DNA of 64,000 nucleotides, taken from assembly GCA_030680795.1 (NCBI GenBank), contig JAUXUL010000036.1:16766-80765 (forward strand), in the 5' to 3' direction. Each line of letters opens with the position of its first letter. The first letter of the stretch is position 1. The notes under the pieces are model-generated. The model had not been told where the DNA came from and searched no databases. It worked only from the letters and a program-made list of their open reading frames with translations. Made by a program: the position numbers and the translations under genes. The stretch is from Anaerolineales bacterium. Its GTDB lineage: Bacteria; Chloroflexota; Anaerolineae; Anaerolineales; Villigracilaceae. Below are positions 26,771-60,236 of the stretch, piece by piece.

Positions 26771-26784
26771 TTATGAGAATATAA

Positions 26785-40696: not shown

Positions 40697-40716
40697 CGTA
40701 TGGGACAAGAGTTTTT

Positions 40717-41083: not shown

Positions 41084-41088
41084 GTAAC

Positions 41089-41143: not shown

Positions 41144-41189
41144 GCAATCTCGTTTAACTGTGACGGTTTGCTAATAAAGCGAGATCAAA

Positions 41190-43546: not shown

Positions 43547-43647
43547 GGTCGCGAAGATTTAAGGGCTTTTTCTTGGCGTGCTTAGCGCTTAAAAACATTC
43601 GTGCCTCTTTGTGTTCTTTGTGGTAAAAATGGGTTCTTGGAGAACAA

Positions 43648-44238
43648 ATGAAAATAAAATTCCTATATATCCTATCAATATTAATCATCACTACCCTGGC
43701 TGCCTGCGGCACTGCTCAGCCGGCATTGAGCTCCGAAGATATTGCGAATACGGCTGTCGCAGACGCATGGATCGCCATCACTCAAACGCAAGCCGCAATG
43801 CCCACTGCAACTCTTGCACCGCCTACAGCGACGTCTGAACCCACGTTGACTCCCTTTCCAACCTTGCCGCCGCTCCCTGTGCTTCCAACTGCGACGGTAG
43901 CAGCTCCTGCAACGGATCCTTGCAACCAGGTCCCGCCTCAGGAACCCCAAGGTGTCTTGGTAAATGTTGAGTTTATTAATCAATCAGATGGACAGGTTAA
44001 TCTTTCAATCGGTATGAGCACGCCAAATGATAAAAGCGAGTGCGTTACTTATTCATTTGCTTTCGGCAAAGTCGGCGTGCCCACAACCAAAGTGTTGGCA
44101 GGTTGTTATTGGGGCTATGCCTGGATCACAGGCGACGAACCCTCCGTTGCCAGAACTGGGAATACCATTTTATGTATGACCGACACGAGCGGAATTTATC
44201 ATATCGAAATCACCAAGGAACGCATTGAATTCAAATAA
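43648..44238 (+). CDS. Lipoprotein with Thr/Pro-rich linker
   Basis: Signal plus lipobox ITTLAAC. Linker PTATLAPPTATSEPTLTPFPTLPPLPVLPTATVAAPATDP. Confidence 0.7.
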   Translation: MKIKFLYILSILIITTLAACGTAQPALSSEDIANTAVADAWIAITQTQAAMPTATLAPPTATSEPTLTPFPTLPPLPVLPTATVAAPATDPCNQVPPQEPQGVLVNVEFINQSDGQVNLSIGMSTPNDKSECVTYSFAFGKVGVPTTKVLAGCYWGYAWITGDEPSVARTGNTILCMTDTSGIYHIEITKERIEFK

Positions 44239-44247
44239 CCGTGGTTT

Positions 44248-44696
44248 ATGAATGAAAAGCGCCCCAAGTTCCTCTTCTACTTCTCCATCACCTTAGTGAT
44301 TTGCTCAAGCGCGCTCTATCACTTTGCAGCAAAGAGCATGCCGTCGAATGTGAACTTCATCGTATCCCTTTTGGTGACGTACATTGTTGCGGTTGTGGTT
44401 GTTTTATTGACCATCTTTTTCTTCCCTATTCAAAACGGACTTGTCTTCGAGTTGAAACAAATCAACTCGGCAAGTATCGGATTGGCCATTGCCATCGTCG
44501 GAATCGAGTTTGGCTTTCTGCGTATCTATCGCTCAGCTGGCCTCTCGGCCTTGCCGCGGTGTTGGTCAATGTAGTGGCTTCGCTGATTTTAGTGTCTGTG
44601 GCGATTTTTGTGTTCAAGGATAAATTGAACTGGGTCAATATCGCTGGGATTTTGGTCTGCCTGGCCGGGCTGATCATGTTGAATTGGAAAAGATAA
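44248..44696 (+). pseudogene. Small DMT/EamA-type (ArnE/ArnF-like) membrane protein split by a frameshift
   Basis: ORF 44248-44574 carries helices 1-3. The last helix (LILVSVAIFVFKDKLNWVNIAGILVCLAGLIMLNW) is in another frame (ORF 44301-44696). The switch is near 44540-44560. Confidence 0.55.
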
Positions 44697-44714
44697 ACAG
44701 GAGTTTTTATAAAA

Positions 44715-45743
44715 ATGCTTTCTCGCATCAAATCCGCTGCTCGCATCCTGCTCAAAGGCGACTCCAAAAAGAAAAACCGCAACCCCATCCCTGCCATCAC
44801 CACCGAGGAGGTGGCGGAGATCAAGCAGTTCTTCCCGCGCGAGAAGTTCTTCATCATGGGCCACGCCCGCTCAGGGACGACTCTCCTGATGCGCCTGGCG
44901 CGCCTGCATCCCGAAGTGCACTGCAACTATCAGGCGCACTTCTTCACGCGCCAGCCTTTGCTCAAGTCACTGGTGAATACGCCCGAAGCGGAAGAGTGGC
45001 TTACGCGCAAGTCCAACCGCTGGAATCAGGGACGCGACCTTTCGCCGCTTGTCCTGCGCTCCGCCGCCGATTTCATCATGGAACGCGATGCGGCTCGCGA
45101 AGGAAAGATGATCGTAGGCGACAAAAGTCCCTCGTCCACCATTCATGGACAGGCTGTGCGCGACATGTATATGGTCTACCCCGATGCGAAACTGATCTAC
45201 ATTATCCGCGATGGACGCGATGTGTTGATCTCGGAACGTTTTCGGAATTTTGTGGAAGAATCCAAATTCTTAAGCACGGAAGACAAACGCATCATTGCTG
45301 ACCTGCAAGTTGATTCTGCTCCATTTACAGATGGACGCCGTTCGATCTTCACCGAGACCTTCATCCGCCGCGTGGCGAAAGACTGGGTGGAAGATTTGCA
45401 GGAGACCGAAGATGAAGGTAAAAGATTATTTGGCGAGAATTATATTGGGATGCGCTATGAAGACCTGCTGAACAACTCGTTTGAAGAAATGTCGCGCTTG
45501 TGGAAATTTTTAGGCGTGAAAAATATCAATGTGTCACTTGTGGACGAGATCAAAACCGAGATGGGATCAAACCCCGATGAGGAGTGGCAGGCCAAACGGA
45601 ATGAAGGCATCGCATCCTTCCTTCCAAAAGGGCAGGCTGGGAATTGGTCGAAATTGTTTACGGCGCGAGACAGGATGATTTTCAAGGAGGCAGCCGGTGA
45701 AATGTTGAAAAAATGGAAATATGAAAAGGATTCCGATTGGTGA
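44715..45743 (+). CDS. Sulfotransferase (PAPS-dependent)
   Basis: 5'-PSB motif FFIMGHARSGTTLL. 3'-PB motif IYIIRDGRDVLIS. Confidence 0.75.
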   Translation: MLSRIKSAARILLKGDSKKKNRNPIPAITTEEVAEIKQFFPREKFFIMGHARSGTTLLMRLARLHPEVHCNYQAHFFTRQPLLKSLVNTPEAEEWLTRKSNRWNQGRDLSPLVLRSAADFIMERDAAREGKMIVGDKSPSSTIHGQAVRDMYMVYPDAKLIYIIRDGRDVLISERFRNFVEESKFLSTEDKRIIADLQVDSAPFTDGRRSIFTETFIRRVAKDWVEDLQETEDEGKRLFGENYIGMRYEDLLNNSFEEMSRLWKFLGVKNINVSLVDEIKTEMGSNPDEEWQAKRNEGIASFLPKGQAGNWSKLFTARDRMIFKEAAGEMLKKWKYEKDSDW

Positions 45744-45849
45744 GTTGTAAACTACAGAGGTGCAAAGGAAAAAATAAATTCAGCACTTTGTGATTTGATA
45801 TACTGCTAAAGCAGGAGTACCTATGTCTCTTTTGATAAATGTTTTTCAA

Positions 45850-47538
45850 ATGAAGAAAAAGCAGATCGCCTCACTTTTCATTGGTATGAGTGCTGTCTTG
45901 GGGGCTATTTTATTCACCATGTTCATTATTCCCAAGTCGGAGCCAGGCAACCAGTTGATTATGGGATTATCGGTAATCAGGGTTTTTATCGGCATCTTTT
46001 TCTTGGGGCTTTTACTGATTAATGTTGGGGCAATATTATTTATCACCGTGAATTTGGGTTCTTGGCAAAAAGAATTTGAAAGAAAGGTGATTGGATATTT
46101 TTTAGACCATCAAGCAGTAGTAATGATAGGTTTGTATGGCGTCTTTATTTTGACGGGTGCGTTTTTATTGCTGATCATACCGCCTATTATCCGCCCTCTT
46201 ACTTTTTTACAGCCGGTTAGCACTCGTTTAGGTGGTTTCTTAGGATGGATCTTTTTGGCCAGCTTACTTCTTATTGTATTGTTGCGTCTTCTTGCTGCAG
46301 AAATGAAAATTAATGAGCCGGTTGTAGCCCGATTGGATGAAATTCTAATTCTTGTGGGGTTATTCCTGGTGGTCTTTGTCCTATATGCACATTTCGCCGC
46401 CCTGATAGGTTGGATCAACAAAACCAAATATTCTTTTTGGGATCTACTTGCCGGGCAATTCTTACAAGGGAAGCTTTATTTGACGAATCCGCCCTATACT
46501 CACGACCTGACCCTGTATGAAGGAAACTGGTATGTTCCCATGCCGCCCCTGCCCGCTATTTTGATGATGCCTCTGGCCTACTTGATCGGGGCGGAGAATA
46601 TCAGCACAAGCTACCTGTCCATGGTTTTTAGTGCCATCAATGGGGTTCTCGTTTTTTTGATTTTGAGACAGATTAATGATCGTCAATGGATCCAAATTTC
46701 CAAGAGGGGAATTTTCTTGCTTGTCATTATATTCTTGTTTGGCACCCCGCACCTTTGGGTTGGTATTAGCGGGCGGGGATGGTATGTCAGCCAGATTTTG
46801 ACAGTACTGTTTTTGGCCCTGGCAACTTATTCGGCCTTGCGGTCATGGCCGGCGTGGTTGATCGGAACTTTTATCGCCATTGCAATGATTGCACGGCCTA
46901 ACAGTTTGATGACTTGGCCGTTCGTTTTCGCAATTTCGATGCAGATACTGAAAGAAAACCAGGGAAAAATTGACCTGAAGCATGTCTTTCATTGGAGTAT
47001 AGAGACGGTACCTCCAATTGTCATAGCTGTTATCGGGTTACTCACTTATAACTACTTAAGATTCGAAAATGTCCTTGATTTTGGATACACTACTGTTAAT
47101 GCTGGTCCAGATATAGTGAAAAATGTACAAACCTGGGGCGTATTTTCTCCTCACTTCATACTTAATAATCTTAAGGTTATGTTTTTCAGGATGCCCCGGA
47201 TAAATTTAAGCAGCCAATGGCCGCTTGAACCATCAACTACCGGCATGAGCGTCTTCCTGACCACGCCTCCCTTGATTTATCTGTTCCATCGTTATCCAAA
47301 GCAGTGGTGGATCATTGGTGCCTGGGTTGCAGTCCTTTTTAATATAACTTTGCTTAGCTTTTACCATAACACCGGCGCTCATCAGTTTGGTTACCGCTAT
47401 ATCCTTGATATGCTGGTGCCCCTGATAACCATGCTGGCTGTAGGGTTGGGCAGGAAAATCCCCTGGCATTTTATAGTTCTTGTTTTGGCCAGTATAATTA
47501 TCAACATGTATGGGGCAGACTGGTTTATGAATGGATGA
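45850..47538 (+). CDS. Polytopic membrane protein, probable GT-C glycosyltransferase
   Basis: ORF 45823-47538. More than 12 hydrophobic segments. Loop LYLTNPPYTHDLTLYEGNWYVPMPP. AT-richer by eye. Confidence 0.45.
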   Translation: MKKKQIASLFIGMSAVLGAILFTMFIIPKSEPGNQLIMGLSVIRVFIGIFFLGLLLINVGAILFITVNLGSWQKEFERKVIGYFLDHQAVVMIGLYGVFILTGAFLLLIIPPIIRPLTFLQPVSTRLGGFLGWIFLASLLLIVLLRLLAAEMKINEPVVARLDEILILVGLFLVVFVLYAHFAALIGWINKTKYSFWDLLAGQFLQGKLYLTNPPYTHDLTLYEGNWYVPMPPLPAILMMPLAYLIGAENISTSYLSMVFSAINGVLVFLILRQINDRQWIQISKRGIFLLVIIFLFGTPHLWVGISGRGWYVSQILTVLFLALATYSALRSWPAWLIGTFIAIAMIARPNSLMTWPFVFAISMQILKENQGKIDLKHVFHWSIETVPPIVIAVIGLLTYNYLRFENVLDFGYTTVNAGPDIVKNVQTWGVFSPHFILNNLKVMFFRMPRINLSSQWPLEPSTTGMSVFLTTPPLIYLFHRYPKQWWIIGAWVAVLFNITLLSFYHNTGAHQFGYRYILDMLVPLITMLAVGLGRKIPWHFIVLVLASIIINMYGADWFMNG

Positions 47539-47556
47539 TGTCTTTTTAAGGTAAAT

Positions 47557-48594
47557 ATGAAATTTTTAATTGCTGGGTTGGGTTCCATAGGACGCAGGCA
47601 TTTTCGTAATTTGATTTCACTTGGCGAAAAGGATATTGTTCTACTTCGCACACACAAAGCCACTTTACCTGATGATGAATTGGCGGGTTACCCTGTTGAG
47701 ATAGATATAAAGGAAGCACTTATAAAACACAAACCAGACGCTGTGATTGTATCAAATCCCACTTCCATGCATTTGGATGTTGCCATCCCTGCGGCAGAAG
47801 CGGGGTGTGCAATTTTGCTTGAAAAACCGATCTCTCATTCCACGGAGAGATTGGATATGTTACAAGCTGCCGCGAAAAATAACAATTCGAAAATTCTGGT
47901 CGCATTTCAGTTTCGCTTTCATCCTGGATTAATGCGTGCAAAACAATTGATCTCAAATGGCGAAATTGGGCGGGTCATTTCGGCGCACGTCCATTTTGGT
48001 GAATACCTGCCAGCCTGGCATCCATGGGAGGATTACAGAAAAGGATATGCGGCTCGCGCGGATATGGGCGGCGGTGTGGTATTGACCCAATGTCACTCGC
48101 TGGATTATCTTCCGTGGCTGGTTGGAAAGGTTGTGTCCGCATGGGGATTTACGGCAAAGTTAAGCGACCTTGAGGTGGATGTAGAAGACACAGCAAAGAT
48201 TGGTTTGCGTTTTGAAGGCGGGGCGTTGGCCAGTCTGCATTTGGATTTCAATCAGCAACCGCCTGCGCATCACTTTGAAGTAATTGGCACAAAAGGTACT
48301 GTGAAGTGGGATCTTTCTGATGGCGCAACACGCATATATCGGGCTTCGCCTGAGTCTCTTGCAATCTCCACAGGAATGGGGATCAAGGCTGGCGGCGAGT
48401 GGGAAACGTATCCACTTCCTGACGGCTGGGAGCGCAATCTCATGTTCCTGGAACAGATGAAACATTTTGTTGCAGTAGTGCATGCTGAAGCAGACCCGAT
48501 CTGTACGCTGGATGATGGTGTGCGGGTGCAATATCTTGTCGGCGCTCTTCACAGGTCCAGTGTTACGGGCAGTGCAGTCGATTTTATAATTTGA
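47557..48594 (+). CDS. Gfo/Idh/MocA-family oxidoreductase
   Basis: MKFLIAGLGSIGRRH...ILLEKPIS. Confidence 0.75.
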   Translation: MKFLIAGLGSIGRRHFRNLISLGEKDIVLLRTHKATLPDDELAGYPVEIDIKEALIKHKPDAVIVSNPTSMHLDVAIPAAEAGCAILLEKPISHSTERLDMLQAAAKNNNSKILVAFQFRFHPGLMRAKQLISNGEIGRVISAHVHFGEYLPAWHPWEDYRKGYAARADMGGGVVLTQCHSLDYLPWLVGKVVSAWGFTAKLSDLEVDVEDTAKIGLRFEGGALASLHLDFNQQPPAHHFEVIGTKGTVKWDLSDGATRIYRASPESLAISTGMGIKAGGEWETYPLPDGWERNLMFLEQMKHFVAVVHAEADPICTLDDGVRVQYLVGALHRSSVTGSAVDFII

Positions 48595-48622
48595 ATTTTG
48601 GGTTGTCTATTTAGTGATGTAA

Positions 48623-50638
48623 ATGCAAAAAATTAAATCGATTCTCCGCTTTAAATATTTTGTTGAATGTCTTTTAATGATTCTGATTTCAGGCCTTGCT
48701 TACTTGCTGTTTATTCCAAAATTCGGTTATTTCAACGACGACTGGTATCTGATGTATGCGGCGGGGGCGAAGGGGCCGGCTGTATTTTGGGATATTTTCA
48801 GCATTGACCGTCCCTTGCGCGCGCTGGTGATGATACCGGCGTATACCTTCTTTGGCGCGGATCCGCTTTATTACAACCTGAGCGCGTTCCTGTTTCGGCT
48901 GCTCGGTGGATTATCTTTTCTATGGATTCTTCGTATGGTCTGGCCAGGAAAGAACCGTATGACTCTTTGGATGGCCATTTTATTTTTACTGTATCCGGGC
49001 TTTTTGTCCCAGCCAAATGCGATTGATTATCTTAGTCATCTTGCCGGGCTGGCGGCGGGGATGCTTTCCATCGGTTTGACGCTCCAAGCAGTTCAATCCA
49101 ATACGTGGAAGCGCAAGGCCTTGTTTTATCTCGCCTCGATTTTGCTGGGCTGGTTTTATCTCGGCCAGATCGAGTGGTATATCGGACTTGAATTCTTCAG
49201 GTTCGCTTGTATTTTTCTTTTGGCGTTTCGCTTGAACGAAACGATATGGGTGAGGGCGGCCAGGTTCTTTCAGTATTCGCTTCCCGTGTTTTTGATCCCT
49301 GGCGTGTTTTTGGCATGGAGACTCTTTTATTTCAAGAGCGAGAGAGGTGCAACAGATGTGGATTTGCAATTAACCGACATGCGAGCGGAACCGTTGAAAT
49401 TCCTTTTCAATTACTCATCCGCACTCTTAAATGACTTTTTTGATGTACTGCTCCACGCCTGGTGGCTGCCGCTCCGCCGCCTTAGCGCTGGAATGACCAC
49501 TCAGGAATGGATGCCGGGATTTGGAATTGCTTTTTTGGTGTTGCTTTTGGTGTGGATATTTTCCGGCGTAGCTCAAGGGCCCGGGGACGTTGAATCAGGC
49601 CAAAGGTCCGTTTGGAGGCGGGAGCTAATTTGGGTTGGCCTTGGGGCGCTTGTATTCGGATTATTCCCCGTTATTTTGGTCGGTCGTACAGTTGATTTTA
49701 AGAATTTTTCACGATATACATTGATTGCATCTATAGGAGCGGTACTATTATGGCAGGTTGTGTTAAGCTATATTTCCAGCTTGCGGTTACGGAATGCTCT
49801 TTTTGGAATCCTGATCGTTTCCGCATCGCTGACTCACTATGCCAATGGATTTGTAAAAGCTCGCGAAACAGAAGCCACTCGTAATTTCTGGTGGCAGGTC
49901 AGCTGGCGTATTCCTCAGATAAATCCTGGCGCGACTTTGGTCACACATTACACTGTAGTAGCCGAGGAGGATTATTTTACGTGGGGCCCCGCCAATCTTC
50001 TTTATCACCCTGAATCCGATCACGAAAAATATGTTCAACCGGCTGTTTATGCCGTGGTTCTGAATGAGAAGACTGTTGCCAAAGTTCTTGCTCACGAACC
50101 TCAGGATTATTCCAATCGTCGCAGCATCCGCACTTATCCAAATTACCGCAATATTCTAATCTTTACTCAGCCAACCCCCGCCTCTTGCGTTCAAGTAATA
50201 GATTTACATCAGGTGGAATTATCTTCTGCTGAAGATTTGCGTGTGACCGACATTGCGCCGTATTCAGAGGCAGACCAGATCGCATTGAATGAGTCGTTCC
50301 ATGTTCCACCTGCAATCCCCTTTGGTCTTGAACCGCCTAATGAGTGGTGTTATTACTACGAGAAAGCTTCATATGCCCGCCAGTTGGGGGATTGGGATGA
50401 AGTTCTTCGTTTGGGAGAGGAGGCCATATCCCGTGGTTTTATTGCAAAAGACCAGATCGAGTGGATGCCATTCCTGCAGGCCTATGCGTATTCTGATTAT
50501 ACTGTCCGCCTGAACGAACTCGCTTCTTTCATGACCTCGGACCTGCCAGCCTTGCAACAGGCCTGTCACACGCTGACAGCCATGCCGCTTGCCCCGAACA
50601 CTCTCAACGAGATCAGCCACCTATTTTGCATCGAATAA
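48623..50638 (+). CDS. Polytopic membrane protein with C-terminal soluble domain, possible GT-C glycosyltransferase
   Basis: 671 aa. Early loop FGYFNDDWYLMYAA; many hydrophobic segments. Confidence 0.45.
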   Translation: MQKIKSILRFKYFVECLLMILISGLAYLLFIPKFGYFNDDWYLMYAAGAKGPAVFWDIFSIDRPLRALVMIPAYTFFGADPLYYNLSAFLFRLLGGLSFLWILRMVWPGKNRMTLWMAILFLLYPGFLSQPNAIDYLSHLAGLAAGMLSIGLTLQAVQSNTWKRKALFYLASILLGWFYLGQIEWYIGLEFFRFACIFLLAFRLNETIWVRAARFFQYSLPVFLIPGVFLAWRLFYFKSERGATDVDLQLTDMRAEPLKFLFNYSSALLNDFFDVLLHAWWLPLRRLSAGMTTQEWMPGFGIAFLVLLLVWIFSGVAQGPGDVESGQRSVWRRELIWVGLGALVFGLFPVILVGRTVDFKNFSRYTLIASIGAVLLWQVVLSYISSLRLRNALFGILIVSASLTHYANGFVKARETEATRNFWWQVSWRIPQINPGATLVTHYTVVAEEDYFTWGPANLLYHPESDHEKYVQPAVYAVVLNEKTVAKVLAHEPQDYSNRRSIRTYPNYRNILIFTQPTPASCVQVIDLHQVELSSAEDLRVTDIAPYSEADQIALNESFHVPPAIPFGLEPPNEWCYYYEKASYARQLGDWDEVLRLGEEAISRGFIAKDQIEWMPFLQAYAYSDYTVRLNELASFMTSDLPALQQACHTLTAMPLAPNTLNEISHLFCIE

Positions 50639-50666
50639 TGGGGATGGGTAGCCGAAAAAATCCAAA

Positions 50667-50694
50667 ATTCACCGCCTGAATTTTGGAGTATAAT
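50667..50694 (+). promoter_or_regulatory. Operator-like dyad plus TATAAT upstream of the PAPS-synthase gene
   Basis: ATTCAC 50667-50672, CGC, CTGAAT 50676-50681, inside the 10-bp inverted repeat CCAAAATTCA/TGAATTTTGG. TATAAT 50689-50694. Confidence 0.45.
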
Positions 50695-50803
50695 TTGCGC
50701 TTGTGTTTGACAAATAATAAAACTTCGGAAGTCTCTCTACATGTTTTTTAATTGAAAGACTCCGAAAAGGCTTCCGAAGTTTACACTTTTCATGGAGTAA
50801 AAA

Positions 50804-52531
50804 ATGGCAAAAGCAAAACTCATCCCGCCTTATGGCGGCAAACTGGTCAACCTGATGGTCGAAGGCAAGGAGCGTGAAGAACTTCTCGCCCGCGCCGGGC
50901 AACTTCCTTCCATCAAGATCACCATGCGTAATATGTGCGACCTCGAATTGATCGCCACGGGCGGATTTTCTCCACTGGCCACATTCATGGGCAAAGCCGA
51001 TTATGACCGAGTGCTCAAGGAAATGCGCCTTGCGGATGGAACGCTCTTCCCGCTTCCCATCACCCTGACAGCTGATCCTAAAGAACTAGCGACCATTGGC
51101 GAAGAACTGGCATTGCGAAGCGCAAACTTCGATCTGATCGCGGTGATGACTCTTGATGAGGTCTATCACTGGGATGCAGAGACCGAAGCGACATTGGCTT
51201 ATGGTTCAACTGACTCCAAGCACCCGATGGTCTCTGAGATGGAGCGGTGGGACAAGGTCTGCATCTCTGGACCAATGAAAGTTGTTAACCTCCCCAAGTA
51301 TTATGACTTTGTGAATTTGAGACACACGCCCGTTCAGATACGTGACATGCTCGAAAAGATGGGACATGATAATGTGGTCGCATTTCAGACCCGCAATCCT
51401 TTGCACCGCATTCATGAAGAACTCACCAAACGCGCCGCGGCTGAGGTCAAAGGCTCGTTGATCGTTCACCCCGTCGTCGGTATGACCAAGCCCGGTGATG
51501 TGGATCATTACACCCGCGTCCGAACATACAAGGCGTTGGTGGATAATTACTACGACAAGAAAGACACCATGCTCAGCCTGCTTCCGCTGGCAATGCGTAT
51601 GGCGGGTCCAAAGGAAGCGTTACTGCATGCCATCATTCGTCGTAACCACGGTGCGAATCATTTTGTTGTCGGCCGCGATCACGCAGGGCCGGGAAACGAT
51701 TCTTCGGGCAAACCATTCTACGGTCCGTATGAGGCGCAGGAAGTCATGAAGAAATACGAAGCCGAGCTAGGCGTCAAGATGATCCCGTTCGAAATGCTCG
51801 TCTATCTGCCTGATGAAGATCGTTATGTCGAAGAGAAGGAAGTGCCCAGGGGCATGAAGACAGCCAATATTTCCGGCACACAAGTCCGCGATGAATATCT
51901 GATCAAGGGTAAGTTGTTACCTGAATGGTTCACACGACCCGAGACCGCTGAGATCTTGCGCGAGATGTATCCGCCGCGCCACAAGCAGGGCTTTTGTATT
52001 TGGTTTACCGGCTTAAGCGGTTCAGGCAAGAGCGCCACATCAGAGGTGCTCACCACGTTGCTCCTCGAACGCGGACGTGAGATAGCCATTCTCGATGGTG
52101 ATGTGGTTCGCACGCATCTTTCCAAGGGACTTGGTTTCAGCAAGGAAGATCGCGACACCAATATCATTCGCATCGGATTCGTAGCCGGCGAAATTGTCCA
52201 CGCAAGCGGTGCTGTGATTTGTGCAGCAATTAGTCCATACCGCGCTACCCGCGCAGAAGCCCGCAAGATGGTGGGTGAGAACTTCATCGAAGTGTACATG
52301 GATACCCCCGTTGAAGTCTGCGAACAACGCGATGTAAAAGGTTTATATGCCAAAGCGCGCCAGGCTATGGCGGACGGTAAGCCGATGGGCTTCACCGGCG
52401 TGGACGATCCCTACGAACCGCCGATCGAACCTTCGATCACGCTCCAGGGCTTCGGCGCAACACCGGAAGACAATGCCCGCATTATCATCAAGTACCTTGA
52501 AGACCAGGGCTATATTCTGCCTGCAAAATAG
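50804..52531 (+). CDS. Bifunctional sulfate adenylyltransferase / adenylylsulfate kinase (PAPS synthase)
   Basis: 575 aa. QTRNPLHRIHEEL and VGRDHAGPG (ATP sulfurylase). C-terminal FTGLSGSGKS P-loop (APS kinase). Confidence 0.9.
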   Translation: MAKAKLIPPYGGKLVNLMVEGKEREELLARAGQLPSIKITMRNMCDLELIATGGFSPLATFMGKADYDRVLKEMRLADGTLFPLPITLTADPKELATIGEELALRSANFDLIAVMTLDEVYHWDAETEATLAYGSTDSKHPMVSEMERWDKVCISGPMKVVNLPKYYDFVNLRHTPVQIRDMLEKMGHDNVVAFQTRNPLHRIHEELTKRAAAEVKGSLIVHPVVGMTKPGDVDHYTRVRTYKALVDNYYDKKDTMLSLLPLAMRMAGPKEALLHAIIRRNHGANHFVVGRDHAGPGNDSSGKPFYGPYEAQEVMKKYEAELGVKMIPFEMLVYLPDEDRYVEEKEVPRGMKTANISGTQVRDEYLIKGKLLPEWFTRPETAEILREMYPPRHKQGFCIWFTGLSGSGKSATSEVLTTLLLERGREIAILDGDVVRTHLSKGLGFSKEDRDTNIIRIGFVAGEIVHASGAVICAAISPYRATRAEARKMVGENFIEVYMDTPVEVCEQRDVKGLYAKARQAMADGKPMGFTGVDDPYEPPIEPSITLQGFGATPEDNARIIIKYLEDQGYILPAK

Positions 52532-52605
52532 TTTAATATTGATAAGGTATCCGTCACCTTTACCCCCAGGGAGCTCCGCGAAGATGACCGTCACCTATTT
52601 TCTCT

Positions 52606-54219
52606 ATGACAAATGTCCGTGCCGCCTCTTTCTTAACCCTTCGACACGCTCAGGGCATCGCCCTTGGCTTGCTCGCCGCACTAGCCACATTTCTCGTCCT
52701 TTATGCGACTCCGCAGGGGCTGAGCCTCTCGGATGATTCGATTGCATACATTGCAGGCGCGCGCAGTATCTTAAGTGGTAATGGTTATCGTGAAGCCTGG
52801 CTTGCATCCAACCAGCCTGGGACACATTTACCACCAGGTTTTTCATCCATGCTTGCGCTGATCGGCTTGAGCGGGTTGGACCCATTACGCGGCACGCGCT
52901 TTATCAACTCACTGCTCTTCGGCGCAAATACGTTCCTGCTCGGCCTGGTCGGCTGGCGCATGACCAGATCGCAAATCGCAGGCGTCCTACTGGCTTTGTT
53001 ATTTGTGTTCAACGCTTCCATGTTTCGAGTCCATACAGCCGCAATGAGCGAACCGCTTTATATCTTTTTCTGCCTTGCTGCGTTCTTAACTTTTTCAAAT
53101 TACTTTGGAATGCAGGAGCTTGCTCCTGCATCAGACAGCAAGCTGTCTGACTCCAGAATATTGCTTATCCTCACGGGCATTCTCACCGCATTCGCTTATC
53201 TCACACGCTATGCAGGACTTGCGCTTCTCGCGACCTTTCTTGCCACGCTCATCCTGCTTCATGATACATGGAAGAAGAGAATAACAAGTGCAGCCATCTT
53301 CCTCGCCGGTTTTATCCCCTTTGCTCTAGCCTGGAGTATCCGCAACAAACTGGTTGCAGATAGCGCCACCAACCGCGCGCTGATCTATCATCCGCTCACT
53401 ACCGAAAATATCGAGACGGGAATTCGCAATTTCTCACTCTTCCTTGTTCCGCTGGAAACATGGCGGCGCGCTCTGATCAAGATCCCAAATCTGTTTGTTA
53501 TTATTCTTGTCATGATCGCATTGGTCCTGCTCGTCTGGATCATGTCCAAAGGACTGAAGAAACTTATCCAGCCATCCACACAAAGACCTGAAATTCTATC
53601 GTTCACGAACGCGTTGTATATCTTCGCCTATCTGGCATCCATTATTTCATCCATGTTATTGTTTGACGCCAGCACAAAGTTCAAACTGCGGATCGTCTCG
53701 CCGATCTACGTTGGACTGCTGATCATGCTGGTTTTATTTGGATATTGGTTATGGCAAAAACGCGCCATCTACTGGTGGGCGCTCACTGCTGTTATTGCAA
53801 TATTCATCCTGACACTTTCAGTTTATGATATGTCCGATGTTGTCAAGCAGCTTCGCAAAGGCGGGCAGGGATACGCCTCCTTCCAGTGGTTTGATTCGCA
53901 AGCTATGCAATTCTTGAGAGAACTTCCCGAAGGCATACGCATCTATAGCAATCAGGTCGCTCCCGTTTATCTTTACACCGGCCGCCCGGGCTATGTCCTG
54001 CCCGACCTCGTCGACCCTGTCACAAGCCTGCCGCGTGGAAATTATGAAGAAGGTGTTGCTGCCGTGCAAAGCGATGTACTATTGGGCAATGCGGTGCTCG
54101 CCTTATTCAAGTTTGGCTCCGAATCGGAAGACGTGCAATCCATTTACATCAATCTCTCCGACGGTTTATATCTCGCGCACGATACCCGCGGAGATAAAAT
54201 CTATACGGCTTATCCATAA
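52606..54219 (+). CDS. ArnT/PMT_2-like GT-C membrane glycosyltransferase
   Basis: 537 aa. LSLSDDSIAYIAGARSILSGNGY first-loop motif. Polytopic. Confidence 0.65.
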   Translation: MTNVRAASFLTLRHAQGIALGLLAALATFLVLYATPQGLSLSDDSIAYIAGARSILSGNGYREAWLASNQPGTHLPPGFSSMLALIGLSGLDPLRGTRFINSLLFGANTFLLGLVGWRMTRSQIAGVLLALLFVFNASMFRVHTAAMSEPLYIFFCLAAFLTFSNYFGMQELAPASDSKLSDSRILLILTGILTAFAYLTRYAGLALLATFLATLILLHDTWKKRITSAAIFLAGFIPFALAWSIRNKLVADSATNRALIYHPLTTENIETGIRNFSLFLVPLETWRRALIKIPNLFVIILVMIALVLLVWIMSKGLKKLIQPSTQRPEILSFTNALYIFAYLASIISSMLLFDASTKFKLRIVSPIYVGLLIMLVLFGYWLWQKRAIYWWALTAVIAIFILTLSVYDMSDVVKQLRKGGQGYASFQWFDSQAMQFLRELPEGIRIYSNQVAPVYLYTGRPGYVLPDLVDPVTSLPRGNYEEGVAAVQSDVLLGNAVLALFKFGSESEDVQSIYINLSDGLYLAHDTRGDKIYTAYP

Positions 54220-54229
54220 AAATCGTACT

Positions 54230-54274
54230 GCGACATTTATGTCGCTTACCATAAAAGACTACATAAATGTCGCG
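54230..54274. repeat. Family E palindrome plus a third arm
   Basis: GCGACATTTATGTCGC 54230-54245. CATAAATGTCGCG 54262-54274. Confidence 0.6.
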
Positions 54275-54294
54275 TTACATATCAAGGAACGAAC

Positions 54295-55122
54295 ATGACC
54301 ATTCTCGATAAATTCAATTTGAAAGACAACGTTGCGGTGGTTACAGGCGGCGGTGGACAATTAGGCTTTGAATTCTGCAAGACCCTGGCCGAAGCAGGCG
54401 CGGCTCTTGTCGCCGCAGACTTGAATATGGAATTTGCAGCGAAGACAGCTGCCCGCCTGACAGACTTAGGCTTCTCTGCCATCGCTTTTCCGCTTGATGT
54501 GACCCGCCTCGAATCAACCCGTGAACTGGTCGCTGAAACCGTCAAGCAATTCGGCCGCCTCGACATTCTCGTCAATTCCGCCGCCCTCGATCCAAAATTT
54601 GACCCCGATGCCGCCTCCAAGGGTATCGCCCCCGGCGCCTTCGAAGACTATCCGCTTGACCAGTGGAACGCGGCCTTGAACGTCAACCTGACAGGCATGT
54701 TCCTTGTTACGCAGGCTTGTGTTAAACAAATGATCGCGCAAGGCAAAAAAGGCAGTATTATCAATATCTGCTCCACGTATGGGCTGAATGGGCCTGACCA
54801 AAGAATTTATATCAAAGATGGGGTGCGAGTGGCGTATAAACCTGTCTATTACACAGTGACCAAAGCCGGCGTGCTGGGTTTTACCAAGTACCTCGCCGCA
54901 TACTATGCCGGGACCGAGATCCGCGTGAATGCACTCACCCCCGGCGGCGTGTTCAACGATCATGAAGATTATTTCGTAAAAAATTATTCCGCCAAAACCA
55001 TTCTCGGACGCATGGCCAAGAAGGACGAAATGAACGGCGCCCTATTATTCCTCGCATCTGAAGCCTCCTCATATATGACAGGCAACAACGTCATCGTGGA
55101 TGGCGGCTGGACATCATGGTAA
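54295..55122 (+). CDS. Short-chain dehydrogenase/reductase (classical SDR)
   Basis: VAVVTGGGGQLG and YTVTKAG (YxxxK). Confidence 0.8.
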   Translation: MTILDKFNLKDNVAVVTGGGGQLGFEFCKTLAEAGAALVAADLNMEFAAKTAARLTDLGFSAIAFPLDVTRLESTRELVAETVKQFGRLDILVNSAALDPKFDPDAASKGIAPGAFEDYPLDQWNAALNVNLTGMFLVTQACVKQMIAQGKKGSIINICSTYGLNGPDQRIYIKDGVRVAYKPVYYTVTKAGVLGFTKYLAAYYAGTEIRVNALTPGGVFNDHEDYFVKNYSAKTILGRMAKKDEMNGALLFLASEASSYMTGNNVIVDGGWTSW

Positions 55123-55131
55123 TTACGGTCA

Positions 55132-55190
55132 GGGCACAGCGGGATGGTCAATCGTCAAAATCCTTGAACTATTCGCTGTGCCCCTACAAT
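55132..55190 (+). promoter_or_regulatory. 10-bp-stem hairpin followed by TACAAT, 8 nt before the start codon
   Basis: GGGCACAGCG (55132-55141) / CGCTGTGCCC (55174-55183). TACAAT 55185-55190. ATG 55199. Confidence 0.45.
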
Positions 55191-55198
55191 AAACAATA

Positions 55199-56419
55199 AT
55201 GACCGAAATCCTCGCTCTCATCCCCGCACGCGGCGGCTCGAAAGGAATTCCGCGCAAGAATATTCGATCCTTTGCAGGTTTTCCTTTGATCGCGTGGAGT
55301 ATTGCCGCGGCTAAACAATCGGATTTGGTCACGCGTGTCATCGTCTCCACAGATGATGAAGAGATCGCCTCAGTTGCCCGCGAGTGGGGGGCTGAGACTC
55401 CCTTCCTGCGTCCCACTGAACTCGCGAAGGATAAAACCACCGACCTGCCAGTCTTTGAACATGCGCTCAAATGGCTTGAAGGCGTGGAAGGCTATCGCCC
55501 GGATATTCTCGTGCAATTGCGCCCCACATCGCCGATCCGCCCGAAAACCATGGTGGATGATTCCATCCGTATCCTGCTGGATCATAAAGATGCAGATTGT
55601 GTGCGTGGCGTTGTGCCTGCCGCGCAAAATCCATTTAAGATGTGGCGGTTTGATGGAGAAAATAAACCGTTGAATCCATTGCTTGAAGTGGATGGAATTC
55701 CCGAACCGTATAATGCTCCGCGCCAAATGTTGCCTCCTGTCTACTGGCAAACAGGTCACATTGATGCGATCAGCATATCAACGATTTTGCAGAAGAAATC
55801 ATTGACGGGCGATGTCATCTATCCATTATTGATTGATCCGAAATATACTGTGGATATTGATACGCTTGTAGATTGGGCCAAGTATGAAGCGCTTGTATAT
55901 GGCGGCTTGAACATGGTCACACCTGGCAGGACTCATCGTTCCATGCCTGAACACATAAAATTGATCATCTGCGATTTCGACGGAGTGGTGACGGACAATC
56001 TCGTGCTGACGGATGAAAATGGGAAAGAGACCGTCTCCGCCTCGCGCAGCGACAGTATGCACATTAATAAATTGCGTGAAATGGGCATTGAGACCATGAT
56101 TCTGTCCTCCGAGCCGAACCCTGTGGTTAAGGCGCGTGCGAAAAAAATGGGGGTGGAGGCAATTCACAATGTGGGCTTGCAGGACAAAGGTCGCGCGATG
56201 CGGGAAATCCTCGAGCAGAAAAATATCAAGGCGGAGAATGTCATCTATATTGGCAATGATTTGAACGATCTTCCATGTTTTGAGATCGCGGGTTGGTCTG
56301 TGGCGGTTGCGGATGCATATCCCGAAGTGATCCGCGCGGCGGATCATGTGTTGACGAAGAGCGGTGGACATGGCGCGGTCCGCGAACTTTGCGAAATAAT
56401 TTTATCGCGCATGAAATAA
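55199..56419 (+). CDS. Fusion: CMP-N-acylneuraminate synthetase (NeuA-type) plus HAD-IIIA (KdsC/YrbI-type) sugar-acid phosphate phosphatase
   Basis: N-terminal IPARGGSKGIPRKN...VQLRPTSPIR. C-terminal LIICDFDGVVTDN...GNDLNDLPCF...GGHGAVRE. Confidence 0.8.
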   Translation: MTEILALIPARGGSKGIPRKNIRSFAGFPLIAWSIAAAKQSDLVTRVIVSTDDEEIASVAREWGAETPFLRPTELAKDKTTDLPVFEHALKWLEGVEGYRPDILVQLRPTSPIRPKTMVDDSIRILLDHKDADCVRGVVPAAQNPFKMWRFDGENKPLNPLLEVDGIPEPYNAPRQMLPPVYWQTGHIDAISISTILQKKSLTGDVIYPLLIDPKYTVDIDTLVDWAKYEALVYGGLNMVTPGRTHRSMPEHIKLIICDFDGVVTDNLVLTDENGKETVSASRSDSMHINKLREMGIETMILSSEPNPVVKARAKKMGVEAIHNVGLQDKGRAMREILEQKNIKAENVIYIGNDLNDLPCFEIAGWSVAVADAYPEVIRAADHVLTKSGGHGAVRELCEIILSRMK

Positions 56420-56437
56420 AATTACGCATTACGTATC

Positions 56438-56455
56438 ACGTATTACGTAATACGT
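56438..56455. repeat. 18-bp perfect palindrome in the neuA-neuB spacer
   Basis: ACGTATTACGTAATACGT. Confidence 0.7.
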
Positions 56456-56473
56456 AAAACTTGAGGAGATACT

Positions 56474-57355
56474 ATGGATCGTGAAATTAAATTTGGTAAT
56501 CGAATGATGGGGGATGGTCATCCTGCCTATATCATCGCGGAAGTGGGCATCAACCATAATGGCGACCTCGACAACGCAAAGAAAATTATTGCTGCCGCCG
56601 CTCACGCGGGCGCGGATGCGGTCAAGTTCCAGAAGCGCACCCCGGAAGTGTCCACGCCGCCTGAGCAACAAAAGCAAATGCGTGAGACGCCCTGGGGTTA
56701 CATCACGTATTTGGATTATCGTCATAAGGTTGAATTCAACGAAGAGCAATATCGTGAGATTGACCGCTATTGCAAGGAAAAGAAAATTGACTGGATGGTC
56801 TCCGTGTGGGACGAGCCTTCGGTTGATTTCATGGAGAAGTTCGATATTCCTGCTTATAAAGTTCCCTCTGCTTCATTAACCGATCATAATCTTTTGAAAT
56901 ATGTTCGCAAGACGGGCAGGCCTGTTATTATTTCAACGGGCATGTCCACTATGGAACAGATCCATAAAGGCGTGAATGCTGTCGGTGAAGATAATCTTGT
57001 CATCATGCACTGCACCAGCACCTATCCATGCGAGCCTGAAGAATTGAATCTCAAGATGATCGAAACACTCCGCAAGGAATTCCCCAATAACCCCATTGGA
57101 TATTCGGGTCACGAAGTTGGGCTTGTGCCTTCTGCGGTTGCCATTGCCCTGGGCGCTACTTCGATTGAACGTCATATCACATTGGATCGCGCCATGTGGG
57201 GCAGTGACCAGGCTGCCTCTGTCGAACCTGGCGGTTTTGAGAGACTTGTGAAGTACATCCGTGTGACAGAGTCCGCGCTCGGTGATGGCATGAAGAAAGT
57301 TTACGAATCCGAAAAGGGTTCGATGAAGAAACTTCGCCGCGTAACTAACGATTAA
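56474..57355 (+). CDS. NeuB-family synthase lacking the C-terminal SAF domain
   Basis: 293 aa. YIIAEVGINHNGDLDNAKKIIAAAAHAGADAVKFQ, GYSGHE, ERHITLD. Ends shortly after the TIM-barrel part. Confidence 0.8.
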   Translation: MDREIKFGNRMMGDGHPAYIIAEVGINHNGDLDNAKKIIAAAAHAGADAVKFQKRTPEVSTPPEQQKQMRETPWGYITYLDYRHKVEFNEEQYREIDRYCKEKKIDWMVSVWDEPSVDFMEKFDIPAYKVPSASLTDHNLLKYVRKTGRPVIISTGMSTMEQIHKGVNAVGEDNLVIMHCTSTYPCEPEELNLKMIETLRKEFPNNPIGYSGHEVGLVPSAVAIALGATSIERHITLDRAMWGSDQAASVEPGGFERLVKYIRVTESALGDGMKKVYESEKGSMKKLRRVTND

Positions 57356-57406
57356 GATTTTACCAATTACTATATCAAGTAAAAGGTAATCGGTAATTGT
57401 ATTTCA

Positions 57407-58261
57407 ATGAGATTGATCCAACAACTTCGTCGTATTCTCCGCCCTGCAGGCAAAACCGCTCAAGCCATTTTGCGATGGAAGCGGTTTTCTTTTAATGATG
57501 CGCCGCCCATCTTTGGCAACTCCAAACCGAAGAGCGGATCGCATTTGCTGTTGCAAATTCTCAATGGCTTTACACAGATCATGCCGTATCGTTACGTAGA
57601 TGCTGATCCGATCCGGACGATAAAGAAAGACGGCGGACGACGGACGACGGACGATGTTCTGATGGATTTGCGTGCTGTGCCAGAAGGGGTAATTGGCTGG
57701 GGATATTTGGAAGCGACCAAAGAGAACGCCTCTTTCTTAACCGAGGCTGGGCGCGTCAACTATTTCATTTATCGTGACCCGAGGGACATGCTCGTCTCAC
57801 AAGTGTTCTTCGCGACCGATATGCACGAAGAGCATGGGATGCACGCCTACTATAATTCCCTGTCTGATTTCGGCGCGAGATTGAATGTTGCCATCTCAGG
57901 CATTGACCAGGACGGCATGAAAATGGTCAGTGTGAAGCAGAGGTATGAAGGCGTCTTCCAGTGGCTGGAACAAAAGAATGTGATGTGCCTGCGCTTTGAG
58001 GATTTGATCAATAACCGTGATGTGACTCTCAACGCCATGCTCGATGAAGTGGAAAAGACAGGCTACAAGATCCCAACTCCGCGCGGGAAAGCATTGTCCA
58101 TTTTGGTGGATGCGATCCAGCCGAAGAAGAGTCACACCTTCCGCTCGGGAAAGACAGGTAGCTGGCGTCAGCATTTCACCGAGGAACACAAGCAGTTATT
58201 CAAGGATATGGCGGGAAATTTGCTGGTGAAGCTGGGGTATGAGAAGGATAATAGTTGGTAA
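57407..58261 (+). CDS. Sulfotransferase (PAPS-dependent)
   Basis: 5'-PSB-like GNSKPKSGSHLL. 3'-PB-like IYRDPRDMLVS. Confidence 0.65.
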   Translation: MRLIQQLRRILRPAGKTAQAILRWKRFSFNDAPPIFGNSKPKSGSHLLLQILNGFTQIMPYRYVDADPIRTIKKDGGRRTTDDVLMDLRAVPEGVIGWGYLEATKENASFLTEAGRVNYFIYRDPRDMLVSQVFFATDMHEEHGMHAYYNSLSDFGARLNVAISGIDQDGMKMVSVKQRYEGVFQWLEQKNVMCLRFEDLINNRDVTLNAMLDEVEKTGYKIPTPRGKALSILVDAIQPKKSHTFRSGKTGSWRQHFTEEHKQLFKDMAGNLLVKLGYEKDNSW

Positions 58262-58321
58262 ATTGGGAAACGGTAGATTGGTGATTATGCCAATATGCTG
58301 CGCCCAGGCTACCAATAACTA

Positions 58322-60025
58322 ATGGCCATGAAAGATTTTTTCACCCAACGCATCAAACGCGGACTTGTCCGCAGGCTCAATAATCTAAAGATCACGGCGA
58401 TGGCGAAGCGTGTGGCTCGTCAGGAGCCGCAACCTTCGGGCGCGCCTGTCCTCTTTTTCAAAGCGTCCACAGGGATTGATGATCTCTCGTGGAACAGCGG
58501 ATTTCATCTGCTGGCATCGTGGGCGTTTCGCTTGCTGGGAATCCCTGTTATTTATTTTGCATGTAACTCTGGCATGAGTCATTGTGTGCTTGGGACGAAT
58601 CGCGATCATGTGCAGAAAAAGCCTCCGTGTAAGTCATGTGTGTATCAATCGAAGACGTTATACACGGGTACAAATCCACATTGGTTTACTTTTGAGCGTG
58701 ATAAAGAACTTGAAAAAACTCTGGAAAATCTTAATGTCGGAGAATTATCCAAATTTCAATGGAAATTAATAAACTATGATGTCATTGCGAGAAGCCGCGA
58801 AGCGGCGACGAAGCAATCTCCTCGTGAGTCGGAGATTGCTTCGTCGCAAAGTGCGCTCCTCGCAATGACATTGCCTTTGGGGGCGTTGTGTCTGCCTGGA
58901 CTGAGATGGGTCCTGAGAGTTCACCATCTGAAAGACGATGAAGCGACGCGTTATCTTTTCAGGGAATATATTTTATCGGCGTGGAATGTCGCGCAAAAAT
59001 TTGAAGCGCTACTCGATCAGACTCAGCCGCGGGCTGTTCTGGTTTTCAATGGACAGTTCTTCCCCGAAGCGACCGCGCGTTACATGGCGTTGAAGCGCGG
59101 CATTCGTGTGATCACGCATGAGGTGGGCTTGCAGCCTGCGACGGCGTACTTTACCGCAGGCGAAGCGACGGCCTACCCGATTGCGATCCCTGAGACGTTC
59201 GAGATGAACGCCGAACAAAATGCAAAACTGGATGCGTATCTTGCGAAGCGCTTTCAAGGGGACTTCACGATGGCGGGCATCAAGTTTTGGGCGGACATGC
59301 AGAGACTCGATGAATCGTTTTTGAAGAAAGCCGCGGGCTTCAAACAGATCGTGCCTGTGTTTACGAATGTGATTTTCGATACCAGCCAACCGCACGCCAA
59401 CACGGTCTTTGAAGATATGTTCGATTGGCTGGATTTGGTGTTGGAGGAAATTCGCTCACACCCTGAAACCTTGTTCGTGATCCGCGCGCACCCCGATGAA
59501 ACCCGAGTACGCAAAGCCAGCCGCGAGACGGTGGCGGGCTGGGTTGAAGCGCGCCGTGTAACGGACTTGCCGAATGTGGTTTTCGTATCGCCACAGGAAA
59601 CGCTCAGTTCGTATGAGTTGATCCTGAAGTCGAAGTTCGTGATGGTTTATAACTCGACCATCGGCTTGGAGGCTGCGATCATGGGCGCTGCGGTGTTGTG
59701 CGCGGGCAAGGCGAGATTTACACAATACCCGACTGTGTTCTTCCCGCAGACAGTGGATGAGGTAAGAGGAAAGATGAAAGAATTTTTAGCGGCTGATGCG
59801 ATTGTTGTTCCGCTTGAATTCAAACGCAATGCGCGCAGGTTCTTGTATTATCAGTTGTTCAGAACATCATTGCCGTTTGGGGAATTTCTTGAGCCATCTG
59901 TCCGCACTACGCAGACGAGATTGAAGTCGTTTGGGTTGGAAGAGGTGGTGAGTTCGGAGTCGGTGAAGGTAATTATGGAGGGAGTGTTGGAGGGTGGAGA
60001 TTTTTTGTTGAAAGCGAATCAGTGA
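58322..60025 (+). CDS. KpsC/KpsS-like capsule-biosynthesis (Capsule_synth-type) GT-B protein, paralog 2, carrying an in-frame repeat insertion
   Basis: 567 aa. FVIRAHPDE and VYNSTIGLEAAIMGAAVLCAG. Colinear by eye with the 28110 protein. Confidence 0.6.
   Translation: MAMKDFFTQRIKRGLVRRLNNLKITAMAKRVARQEPQPSGAPVLFFKASTGIDDLSWNSGFHLLASWAFRLLGIPVIYFACNSGMSHCVLGTNRDHVQKKPPCKSCVYQSKTLYTGTNPHWFTFERDKELEKTLENLNVGELSKFQWKLINYDVIARSREAATKQSPRESEIASSQSALLAMTLPLGALCLPGLRWVLRVHHLKDDEATRYLFREYILSAWNVAQKFEALLDQTQPRAVLVFNGQFFPEATARYMALKRGIRVITHEVGLQPATAYFTAGEATAYPIAIPETFEMNAEQNAKLDAYLAKRFQGDFTMAGIKFWADMQRLDESFLKKAAGFKQIVPVFTNVIFDTSQPHANTVFEDMFDWLDLVLEEIRSHPETLFVIRAHPDETRVRKASRETVAGWVEARRVTDLPNVVFVSPQETLSSYELILKSKFVMVYNSTIGLEAAIMGAAVLCAGKARFTQYPTVFFPQTVDEVRGKMKEFLAADAIVVPLEFKRNARRFLYYQLFRTSLPFGEFLEPSVRTTQTRLKSFGLEEVVSSESVKVIMEGVLEGGDFLLKANQ
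58781..58869. repeat. Palindromic element family A copy inside the CDS, read in frame
   Basis: GTCATTGCGAGAAGC...GACGAAGCAATCTCC...GGAGATTGCTTCGTCGC...CTCGCAATGAC, translated as VIARSREAATKQSPRESEIASSQSALLAMT. Confidence 0.8.
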
Positions 60026-60236
60026 TATTCGGAAAATAAGCCAGACATGTCTCAACTCTCCGAGTCATGTCTGATCTTTGACCTATTCAATATAAATTTT
60101 TATTGAGAGTGTGACTGCGGCAACAAACCGAGTTGTGACATCAATGCAAATGGTCTACCACACTCCTTTATTCAATCATCCAGCCATCTTTCGTGCGTGT
60201 CCCAACCTATTGTAGACATTCAAAACTGACTGGATT

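Follow-up and report, generated by a model that had tools for sequence, protein, structure and literature searches.

We analysed a 64,000-nucleotide stretch of contig JAUXUL010000036.1 (hereafter the window) from the draft genome of an Anaerolineales bacterium of the phylum Chloroflexota (GCA_030680795.1), with regard to a putative sulfation system that lies within a glycan biosynthesis locus. The system consists of a fused ATP sulfurylase/APS kinase (Sat/CysC, 50804-52531), which is predicted to produce 3'-phosphoadenosine 5'-phosphosulfate (PAPS) from sulfate via adenosine 5'-phosphosulfate (APS), and two PAPS-type sulfotransferases, ST1 (44715-45743) and ST2 (57407-58261). This locus is probably the part of a conserved cell-surface glycan pathway of Anaerolineales that supplies PAPS and transfers the sulfuryl group. 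A preliminary description of the same DNA had predicted a sulfated surface glycan; all the evidence that we gathered supports this interpretation, though the sulfated product is still a prediction from the genes.

The gene at 50804-52531 is a full Sat/CysC fusion of the predicted PAPS-producing type. Its product of 575 residues comprises, according to Pfam, the domains PUA_2 (residues 7-162), ATP-sulfurylase (171-387, E 3e-83) and APS_kinase (395-547, E 9e-56), and it scored 821.6 bits against NF004040, the NCBIfam equivalog model for bifunctional SAT/APS kinases, whose cut-off is 669. Almost the full protein could also be aligned with the enzyme of Aquifex aeolicus (2GKS, E 9e-218), which has the same domain order of PUA-like, sulfurylase and C-terminal kinase; this comparison is with the structure entry alone, and we take the genomic context to differ. 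The fused enzyme of the preliminary description is thus confirmed in its coordinates and strand (+), by the equivalog score and by the 2GKS match. The sulfurylase motifs QTRNPLHRIH and GRDHAG are found in the translation, and the C-terminal kinase domain carries an intact P-loop (GLSGSGKS), LDGD and ISPY. A fusion with a regulatory-only kinase, as in the fungal type of ATP sulfurylase, was rejected on account of the equivalog score and because these kinase motifs are readable in the translation, which argues against a degenerate domain. Judging from the family and the intact motifs, the Sat domain would convert sulfate and ATP to APS, and the fused CysC domain would convert APS to PAPS. In a genome of the same family (G130, C46:11847-12842), Sat/CysC was matched in two pieces only (residues 1-94 and 365-571, 87% identity), and the gene may be disrupted there.

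With regard to the sulfotransferases, ST1 (342 residues) matched Sulfotransfer_3 (E 8e-24) and Sulfotransfer_1 (E 3e-17) of Pfam, and ST2 (284 residues) gave a partial match to Sulfotransfer_1 (residues 121-270, E 2e-9). The motifs of ST1, namely GHARSGTT for 5'-phosphosulfate binding (5'-PSB), RDGRDxxxS for 3'-phosphate binding (3'-PB; RDGRDVLIS in ST1) and KGxAGxW, vary little or not at all among 17 orthologs. The same holds for PKSG (5'-PSB; PKSGSH in ST2), RDPRDxxxS (3'-PB; RDPRDMLVS) and SHTFRxGxxGxW of ST2 in 84 homologs, which were collected by a search of 1.8 billion representatives. Both predicted structures show the alpha/beta fold of sulfotransferases: the ST1 model (predicted local distance difference test, pLDDT, 85) matched the tyrosylprotein sulfotransferases TPST1/2 and the bacterial structure 3rnl, and the ST2 model (pLDDT 96) matched the cytosolic sulfotransferases SULT7A1/2A1, all at probability 1.0. 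The two sulfotransferases with 5'-PSB and 3'-PB motifs that had been described previously are therefore borne out by Pfam, the motifs of the orthologs and the models. A lack of PAPS binding had been named as a fact that would speak against the sulfation system; both proteins keep the motifs predicted to bind PAPS. Neither has a signal peptide or a membrane span. When one genome per species was scanned, 449 species-level genomes proved to encode a relative of ST1, and the best 80 of them are 77-85% identical. Three ST1 loci (L064, L068 and L071) that are 81-83% identical to those of Anaerolineales come from metagenome-assembled genomes whose titles name Bacteroidota, Microthrixaceae and Herpetosiphon; wrong binning or labelling of the contigs is the most likely explanation, rather than gene transfer.

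The sulfation module is not strain-specific but an order-wide conserved core. In a survey of 151 genomes sampled across Anaerolineales, a Sat/CysC-type match was found in 103 (full-length fusions in 77) and a PF00685 sulfotransferase in 93; both were present in 89 genomes, the PAPS enzymes only in 14, the sulfotransferase only in four and neither in 44. A Fisher test on this co-occurrence was used only descriptively because related genomes are not independent. A recurrent gene order was evident in 20 regions from at least seven families. Its 5' part consists of an unknown gene, a GT2 glycosyltransferase gene, a TagF-like gene, ST1, a GFO-type oxidoreductase gene and zero to three variable genes for polytopic membrane proteins. 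The 3' part continues with Sat/CysC, in some regions a PMT-like gene, a short-chain dehydrogenase/reductase (SDR) gene, a gene for a CMP-transferase fused to a phosphatase of the haloacid dehalogenase (HAD) type, NeuB, in some regions ST2, and Capsule_synth. Among 48 species-level loci whose downstream flank extends for 8 kb or more, 44 have Sat/CysC 3' of ST1 and on its strand. The gene at 45823-47538 is missing from many syntenic loci and that at 48623-50638 varies too, so that both are placed outside the conserved module.

The sat/cysC gene seems to have its own promoter. A palindrome with 11-bp arms (50661-50687; core AAAATTCA-N5-TGAATTTT) is found just 5' of a TATAAT -10 box (50689-50694), and neither the core nor the box varies among eight genomes from several genera, in contrast to the diverging sequence around them. 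The dyad search gave six sites in the window: the exact form ATTCAG-N3-CTGAAT occurs five times elsewhere in the window, against 0.15 expected by chance, and the dyad at the sat/cysC promoter is of the type at the regulator genes of the island. Because the promoter overlaps this operator type, PAPS supply appears to be tied to glycan synthesis. Counts from a scan of 43500-60400 for promoter and terminator consensus sequences were no higher than those of shuffled sequences, and that scan served just for seeing the palindrome. Operon boundaries were taken from the gaps between genes, which are 19-80 bp except for a single gap of 166 bp 5' of sat/cysC, where the palindrome is situated. From sat/cysC through Capsule_synth the gaps are 52-77 bp, which suggests that 50804-60025 forms one transcription unit. 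An inverted repeat at 50720-50781 (AACTTCGGAAG ... CTTCCGAAGTT), which could form a hairpin, is found in the sat/cysC leader, 3' of the -10 box and 5' of the start codon; G044, G071 and G014 retain its first arm, and G071 and G014 its second arm.

A fused Sat/CysC could serve sulfur assimilation as well as sulfation. In the source genome, a draft of 3.45 Mb and 97.4% completeness, a genome-wide Pfam search found a single ATP sulfurylase and a single APS kinase, both being the fusion of the window. Pfam searches of this genome gave no match for PAPS_reduct (PF01507; CysH or CysD) or for the NIR_SIR sulfite reductase (PF01077), and the same searches as controls were positive in 14/14 and 11/14 reference genomes, respectively. 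The set that makes up assimilatory sulfate reduction, CysH and sulfite reductase alongside Sat/CysC, was thus not found. PAPS_reduct was also absent from a closed genome of the same genus (G044), and a strong PAPS_reduct match was absent from 57 of the 77 fusion-bearing genomes in the survey. CysK is present above its cut-off, and therefore cysteine can come from sulfide. Because no reductive branch from APS or PAPS was detected in the genome, PAPS would be a sulfuryl donor only, and it is most likely made only for sulfation. The preliminary description had counted a sole assimilatory copy of sat/cysC as evidence against a sulfation module; the fusion is indeed the only copy, but no reductase was found, so that this objection applies in letter only. 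One may still suppose that Sat/CysC feeds assimilation via an unrecognised or unassembled reductase and that its position in a glycan locus is coincidental, considering that it is the sole Sat and sole APS kinase, that a PAPS_reduct gene occurs elsewhere in 20 of the 77 fusion-bearing relatives, and that the draft is not closed. However, PAPS_reduct and NIR_SIR are missing from the source genome and PAPS_reduct from the closed relative, which led us to reject assimilation as the principal role; moreover, the placement among glycan genes is kept order-wide, the presence of Sat/CysC tracks that of sulfotransferases, and its promoter bears the operator type of the glycan island. Assimilation through such a reductase is therefore very improbable. 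Since the locus is a clear example of PAPS synthesis that persists where sulfate reduction is lacking, a sat/cysC match in a genome of this kind should not be counted as assimilatory sulfate reduction.

The chemistry of ST1 and ST2, on the other hand, is less certain than the presence of both motifs implies, and several observations weigh against the reading of the locus as a glycan sulfation system. Neither enzyme has the canonical general base. In the invariant Gln73-Ala-His75-Phe-Phe of ST1, Gln73 aligns with Glu99 of TPST2 and with Glu of the EAHFF motif of 3rnl, and this substitution is conserved in the orthologs; the catalytic residues of TPST2 are R78, E99, K158 and S285 (PMC5562738), and R78 is aligned with Arg52 of ST1. 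In ST2, Tyr100 stands in a profile column that aligns with the THL motif of SULT7A1 and holds His in 75 of the 84 homologs, while all syntenic ST2 orthologs have Tyr. The THL motif of cytosolic sulfotransferases holds the catalytic His, which is kept in an ST2 paralog of the same genome (contig C35, 40% identity). Canonical catalysis cannot be assumed because of these two replacements, and ST1, ST2 or both might be inactive proteins that bind PAPS or 3'-phosphoadenosine 5'-phosphate (PAP) as regulators or scaffolds, leaving sulfation to the other sulfotransferases of the genome only. We consider such inactivity quite improbable: both substitutions are fixed in orthologs while all the PAPS-contacting motifs are invariant, ST1 retains the invariant His75, corresponding to His of EAHFF in 3rnl, together with the invariant Lys137, which aligns with K158 of TPST2, and the high identity over 80 species-level genomes points to a strong constraint on function. 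It would also be uneconomical to keep two inactive proteins beside the sole PAPS synthase. In view of this constraint and the retained motifs, ST1 and ST2 are read as active enzymes with a non-canonical base; the substitutions lower our confidence, yet they are the most interesting enzymological point of the locus.

The acceptor is a further point to be weighed. The nearest structures and best sequence matches of ST1 are tyrosylprotein sulfotransferases, the best matches of ST2 are cytosolic SULTs for small molecules, and one sulfotransferase of the genome (on contig C8) has no glycan cluster around it, so that the substrate may be protein or peptide tyrosine (as for RaxST or TPST), a lipid or a small metabolite, with the glycan locus as an incidental position. 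But the matches are distant (15-19% identity, template modelling score ~0.5-0.66) and mostly reflect the shared PAPS-binding core; dozens of genomes of several families have ST1 between the TagF-like transferase and a sugar-type oxidoreductase, and ST2 between NeuB and a KpsC/S-like gene; and no genes for precursor peptides or lipid synthesis were seen beside either of them. A non-polysaccharide acceptor is thus improbable. The glycan reading also has to accommodate the following points. Genome searches found no SulP sulfate permease and no CysT/W above the cut-off, leaving one PiT-family gene and two DASS-like genes as candidates for sulfate uptake, and neither cysQ nor a sulfate permease gene was found within the window. 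The absence of CysH and sulfite reductase comes from Pfam searches of a 97%-complete draft; the survey counts are descriptive, covering kin that are not independent and PF00685 alone, with sulfotransferases matching PF13469 only uncounted. Lastly, the literature on the organism and its relatives gave no chemical evidence of a sulfated glycan, and literature searches gave no paper linking Anaerolineae or Villigracilis to sulfotransferases, PAPS or sulfated polymers.

The source genome has about eight genes of sulfotransferase families in Pfam, two of which lie in the window, two each on contigs C48 and C36, and one each on C35 and C8. Seven of them are in clusters with genes of Wzx, Wzy_C, GT2, GT4 or PMT_2 type, and sulfation appears to be a general feature of the glycans of this organism. 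The preliminary description had called the system a dedicated sulfation module. It is right in that a PAPS synthase occurs with sulfotransferases in a glycan locus, but Sat/CysC does not serve the locus of the window alone, because about six further sulfotransferases at four other loci rely on the single PAPS synthase.

For the glycan pathway, we therefore propose the following working scheme, in which each step is tentative. ST1 and ST2 would sulfate cytoplasmic intermediates, linked to nucleotide or lipid, of an anionic polymer. From the gene order, the most likely substrate of ST1 would be the unit that the TagF-like transferase and the GFO oxidoreductase assemble, and that of ST2 the unit that bears ulosonic acid. 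The same polymer may carry an ulosonic acid resembling KDN (2-keto-3-deoxy-D-glycero-D-galacto-nononic acid) or Kdo (3-deoxy-D-manno-octulosonic acid), which the neighbouring SDR, CMP-transferase/phosphatase and NeuB would synthesise. It may be exported via the ABC-2/Wzt pair of the locus (25665-28074) or the flippase. PAP would be removed by the product of the single Inositol_P-family gene of the genome, which lies outside the window on contig C33, and the PAPS pool would be shared with the about six further sulfotransferases in other glycan clusters. The features of the window and the other sulfotransferase loci of the genome are listed in Table 1.

Table 1. Genes and sites of the glycan locus in the window (positions in the window), followed by sulfotransferase genes on other contigs of the genome (contig:positions).
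Feature	Position	Strand	Evidence or neighbours
Flippase of the locus	8772-10280		
ABC2_membrane (ABC-2 permease)	25665-26708		Pfam
ABC_tran + Wzt_C	26785-28074		Pfam
Capsule_synth	28110-29750		Pfam, above cut-off, weak (E 1e-7)
TagF-like glycerophosphotransferase-family gene (Glyphos_transf)	42083-43546	+	Pfam PF04464, E 8e-8
DMT-like small membrane protein with four transmembrane segments, frameshifted in this assembly	44248-44696	+	Directly 5' of ST1
ST1, predicted cytoplasmic PAPS-type sulfotransferase	44715-45743	+	Sulfotransfer_3/1
Polytopic membrane protein with weak GT-C leads	45823-47538	+	NCBIfam LA_3751/2 putative glycosyltransferase, E 2e-6; Atlas lead to PMT_2
GFO/IDH/MocA oxidoreductase, conserved partner after ST1	47557-48594	+	Pfam, synteny
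Polytopic protein, Chloroflexota-specific, no assigned family	48623-50638	+	Atlas clusters carry no family
Putative sat/cysC promoter (palindrome and TATAAT -10 box)	50661-50694	+	Dyad search, conservation
Sat/CysC, predicted bifunctional ATP sulfurylase/APS kinase (PAPS synthase)	50804-52531	+	Pfam, NCBIfam, 2GKS alignment
PMT-like GT-C membrane glycosyltransferase	52606-54219	+	Pfam PMT, E 5e-7
SDR oxidoreductase of the ulosonic-acid module	54295-55122	+	Pfam, NCBIfam, conserved synteny
CMP-ulosonic acid synthetase with a fused HAD domain like KdsC/KDN-9-P phosphatase	55199-56419	+	CTP_transf_3 + Hydrolase_3
Short NeuB-family synthase without SAF domain	56474-57355	+	Pfam NeuB, E 9e-81
ST2, predicted cytoplasmic SULT-fold sulfotransferase	57407-58261	+	Sulfotransfer_1, model, homologs
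KpsC/KpsS-like Capsule_synth, last gene of the + strand run	58322-60025	+	Pfam PF05159, E 5e-6; syntenic 3' of ST2
Two sulfotransferases	C48:4672-9228		Wzy_C, Wzz-like, GT2, DUF6056, two PMT_2
Two sulfotransferases	C36:14344-17629		Two GT4, Wzx-type flippase, Wzy_C
One sulfotransferase	C35:234476-235360		GT2, 488-residue protein without Pfam match
One sulfotransferase	C8:135068-136255		No glycan genes

Among the neighbours of ST1, the TagF-like gene is the conserved 5' neighbour and is syntenic in most related loci. Directly before ST1, the DMT-like gene is split into two overlapping frames (frame 1 to ~44540, then frame 3 to 44696), while its orthologs of ~145 residues are intact in L062, L075 and L087; the frameshift marks a genuine pseudogene or else an error of the assembly. 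The GT2 gene is separated from the TagF-like gene by genes for a GIY-YIG nuclease and a weakly HEPN-like protein (40633-42029). In relatives, the GIY-YIG gene shifts its place within the locus or is absent, so that it looks like a mobile or defence insertion. The GFO oxidoreductase resembles inositol 2-dehydrogenase and UDP-GlcNAc 3-dehydrogenase models of NCBIfam, below their cut-offs. The preliminary description had also spoken of GT-C proteins interleaved with the sulfation genes. This stands for the PMT-like protein, whose gene is kept 3' of Sat/CysC in family-level relatives; the protein of 45823-47538 has no Pfam match and offers weak leads only, and no family could be assigned to that of 48623-50638, which matched neither Pfam nor NCBIfam.

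The second nonulosonic-acid module that had been noted there is present with its SDR, CTP_transf_3/HAD fusion and NeuB genes. The HAD domain of the fusion scored 113 bits against a KdsC-type phosphatase subfamily of NCBIfam (cut-off 107) and also matched the model of the Bacteroides KDN-9-P phosphatase, below its cut-off; NeuB scored 264 bits against TIGR03569, again below the cut-off. The layout of KdsC-type phosphatase, cytidylyltransferase and NeuB/KdsA-type synthase beside ST2 is like that of the phosphatase-dependent KDN-9-P and Kdo-8-P routes, but the synthase and the cytidylyltransferase are below every equivalog cut-off. The module thus seems to follow a phosphatase-dependent route, KDN-like or Kdo-like. 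An ACGTA-rich palindrome of 14 pairs (56422-56457) is found within the 55 bp that separate NeuB from the CMP-transferase/HAD gene. The window contains KpsC/KpsS-family genes as well as an ABC-2 permease/ATPase pair, both Capsule_synth matches being weak though above the Pfam cut-off. According to a reference cited in PMC11766843, KpsC/KpsS is a family of Kdo transferases.

Sulfated glycans are considered uncommon in bacteria, and the pathways described for them are few. Anaerolineales are abundant in activated sludge, lakes and groundwater. In the extracellular polymeric substances (EPS) of sludge, sialylated and sulfated glycoconjugates have been measured, while few sulfotransferase matches were obtained in the dominant organisms and the responsible ones were not found (PMC10483923). 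It is plausible that Anaerolineales are producers of sulfated, sialic-acid-like sludge polymers, and the order-conserved gene set in Villigracilis-type Chloroflexi could account for sludge polymers that carry sulfate and nonulosonic acid. A bolder proposal, which we regard as doubtful, is that Anaerolineales, as monoderm filaments, build a wall polymer like teichoic acid or capsule that is charged by both sulfate esters and KDN/Kdo-like ulosonic acid, that ST2 with its Tyr for His sulfates the ulosonic acid itself, and that these organisms are a main, hitherto unassigned source of the sialylated and sulfated glycoconjugates of sludge EPS. If true, the sulfated ulosonic acid would be what sulfated sialic acid is elsewhere, in a bacterial form. 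The Sat/CysC fusion beside ST1 and the peptide motifs QAHFFTR and GHARSGTT are simple markers that can be used in surveys of metagenomes and metatranscriptomes.

Finally, the locus can be compared with known sulfation systems. In Cobetia marina KMM 1449, the locus for a sulfated capsule comprises cysNC, cysD, cysQ, a permease gene, sulfotransferase genes, kpsSC and an ABC transporter, and its product, which also carries glycerophosphate, has been chemically proven (PMC11766843). PAPS genes and sulfotransferases likewise occur here inside a polysaccharide locus of ABC-transporter type with KpsC/KpsS-type genes, and the TagF-like gene of the glycerophosphotransferase family may be another likeness. 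On the other hand, C. marina is a diderm gammaproteobacterium that uses CysD and CysN/C and has cysQ and a sulfate permease in the locus, whereas our locus belongs to a Chloroflexota host, has a single Sat/CysC fusion with an adjacent ulosonic-acid module and is known from genes alone. The rhizobial nodPQ with nodH (and lpsS) are similar in that an ATP sulfurylase/APS kinase set lies beside the sulfotransferase that it serves and provides PAPS for sulfation of glycoconjugates. Rhizobial nodPQ is an extra copy of the CysDN/C type beside the housekeeping cys genes, unlike the Sat/CysC here, which is the sole copy in a genome where the reductive pathway was not found. The synechan (xss) cluster of Synechocystis also has sulfotransferases inside a polysaccharide assembly cluster, and sulfated extracellular polysaccharides are presented as uniquely cyanobacterial among bacteria in that report (PMC8205485). 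Thus, the type of arrangement is already known, and the locus is a new, well-supported member of it in a monoderm phylum. What sets it apart is the Chloroflexota host, the sole Sat/CysC with no reductive branch found, the linkage with ulosonic acid, the substituted bases of the sulfotransferases and the conservation throughout the order.

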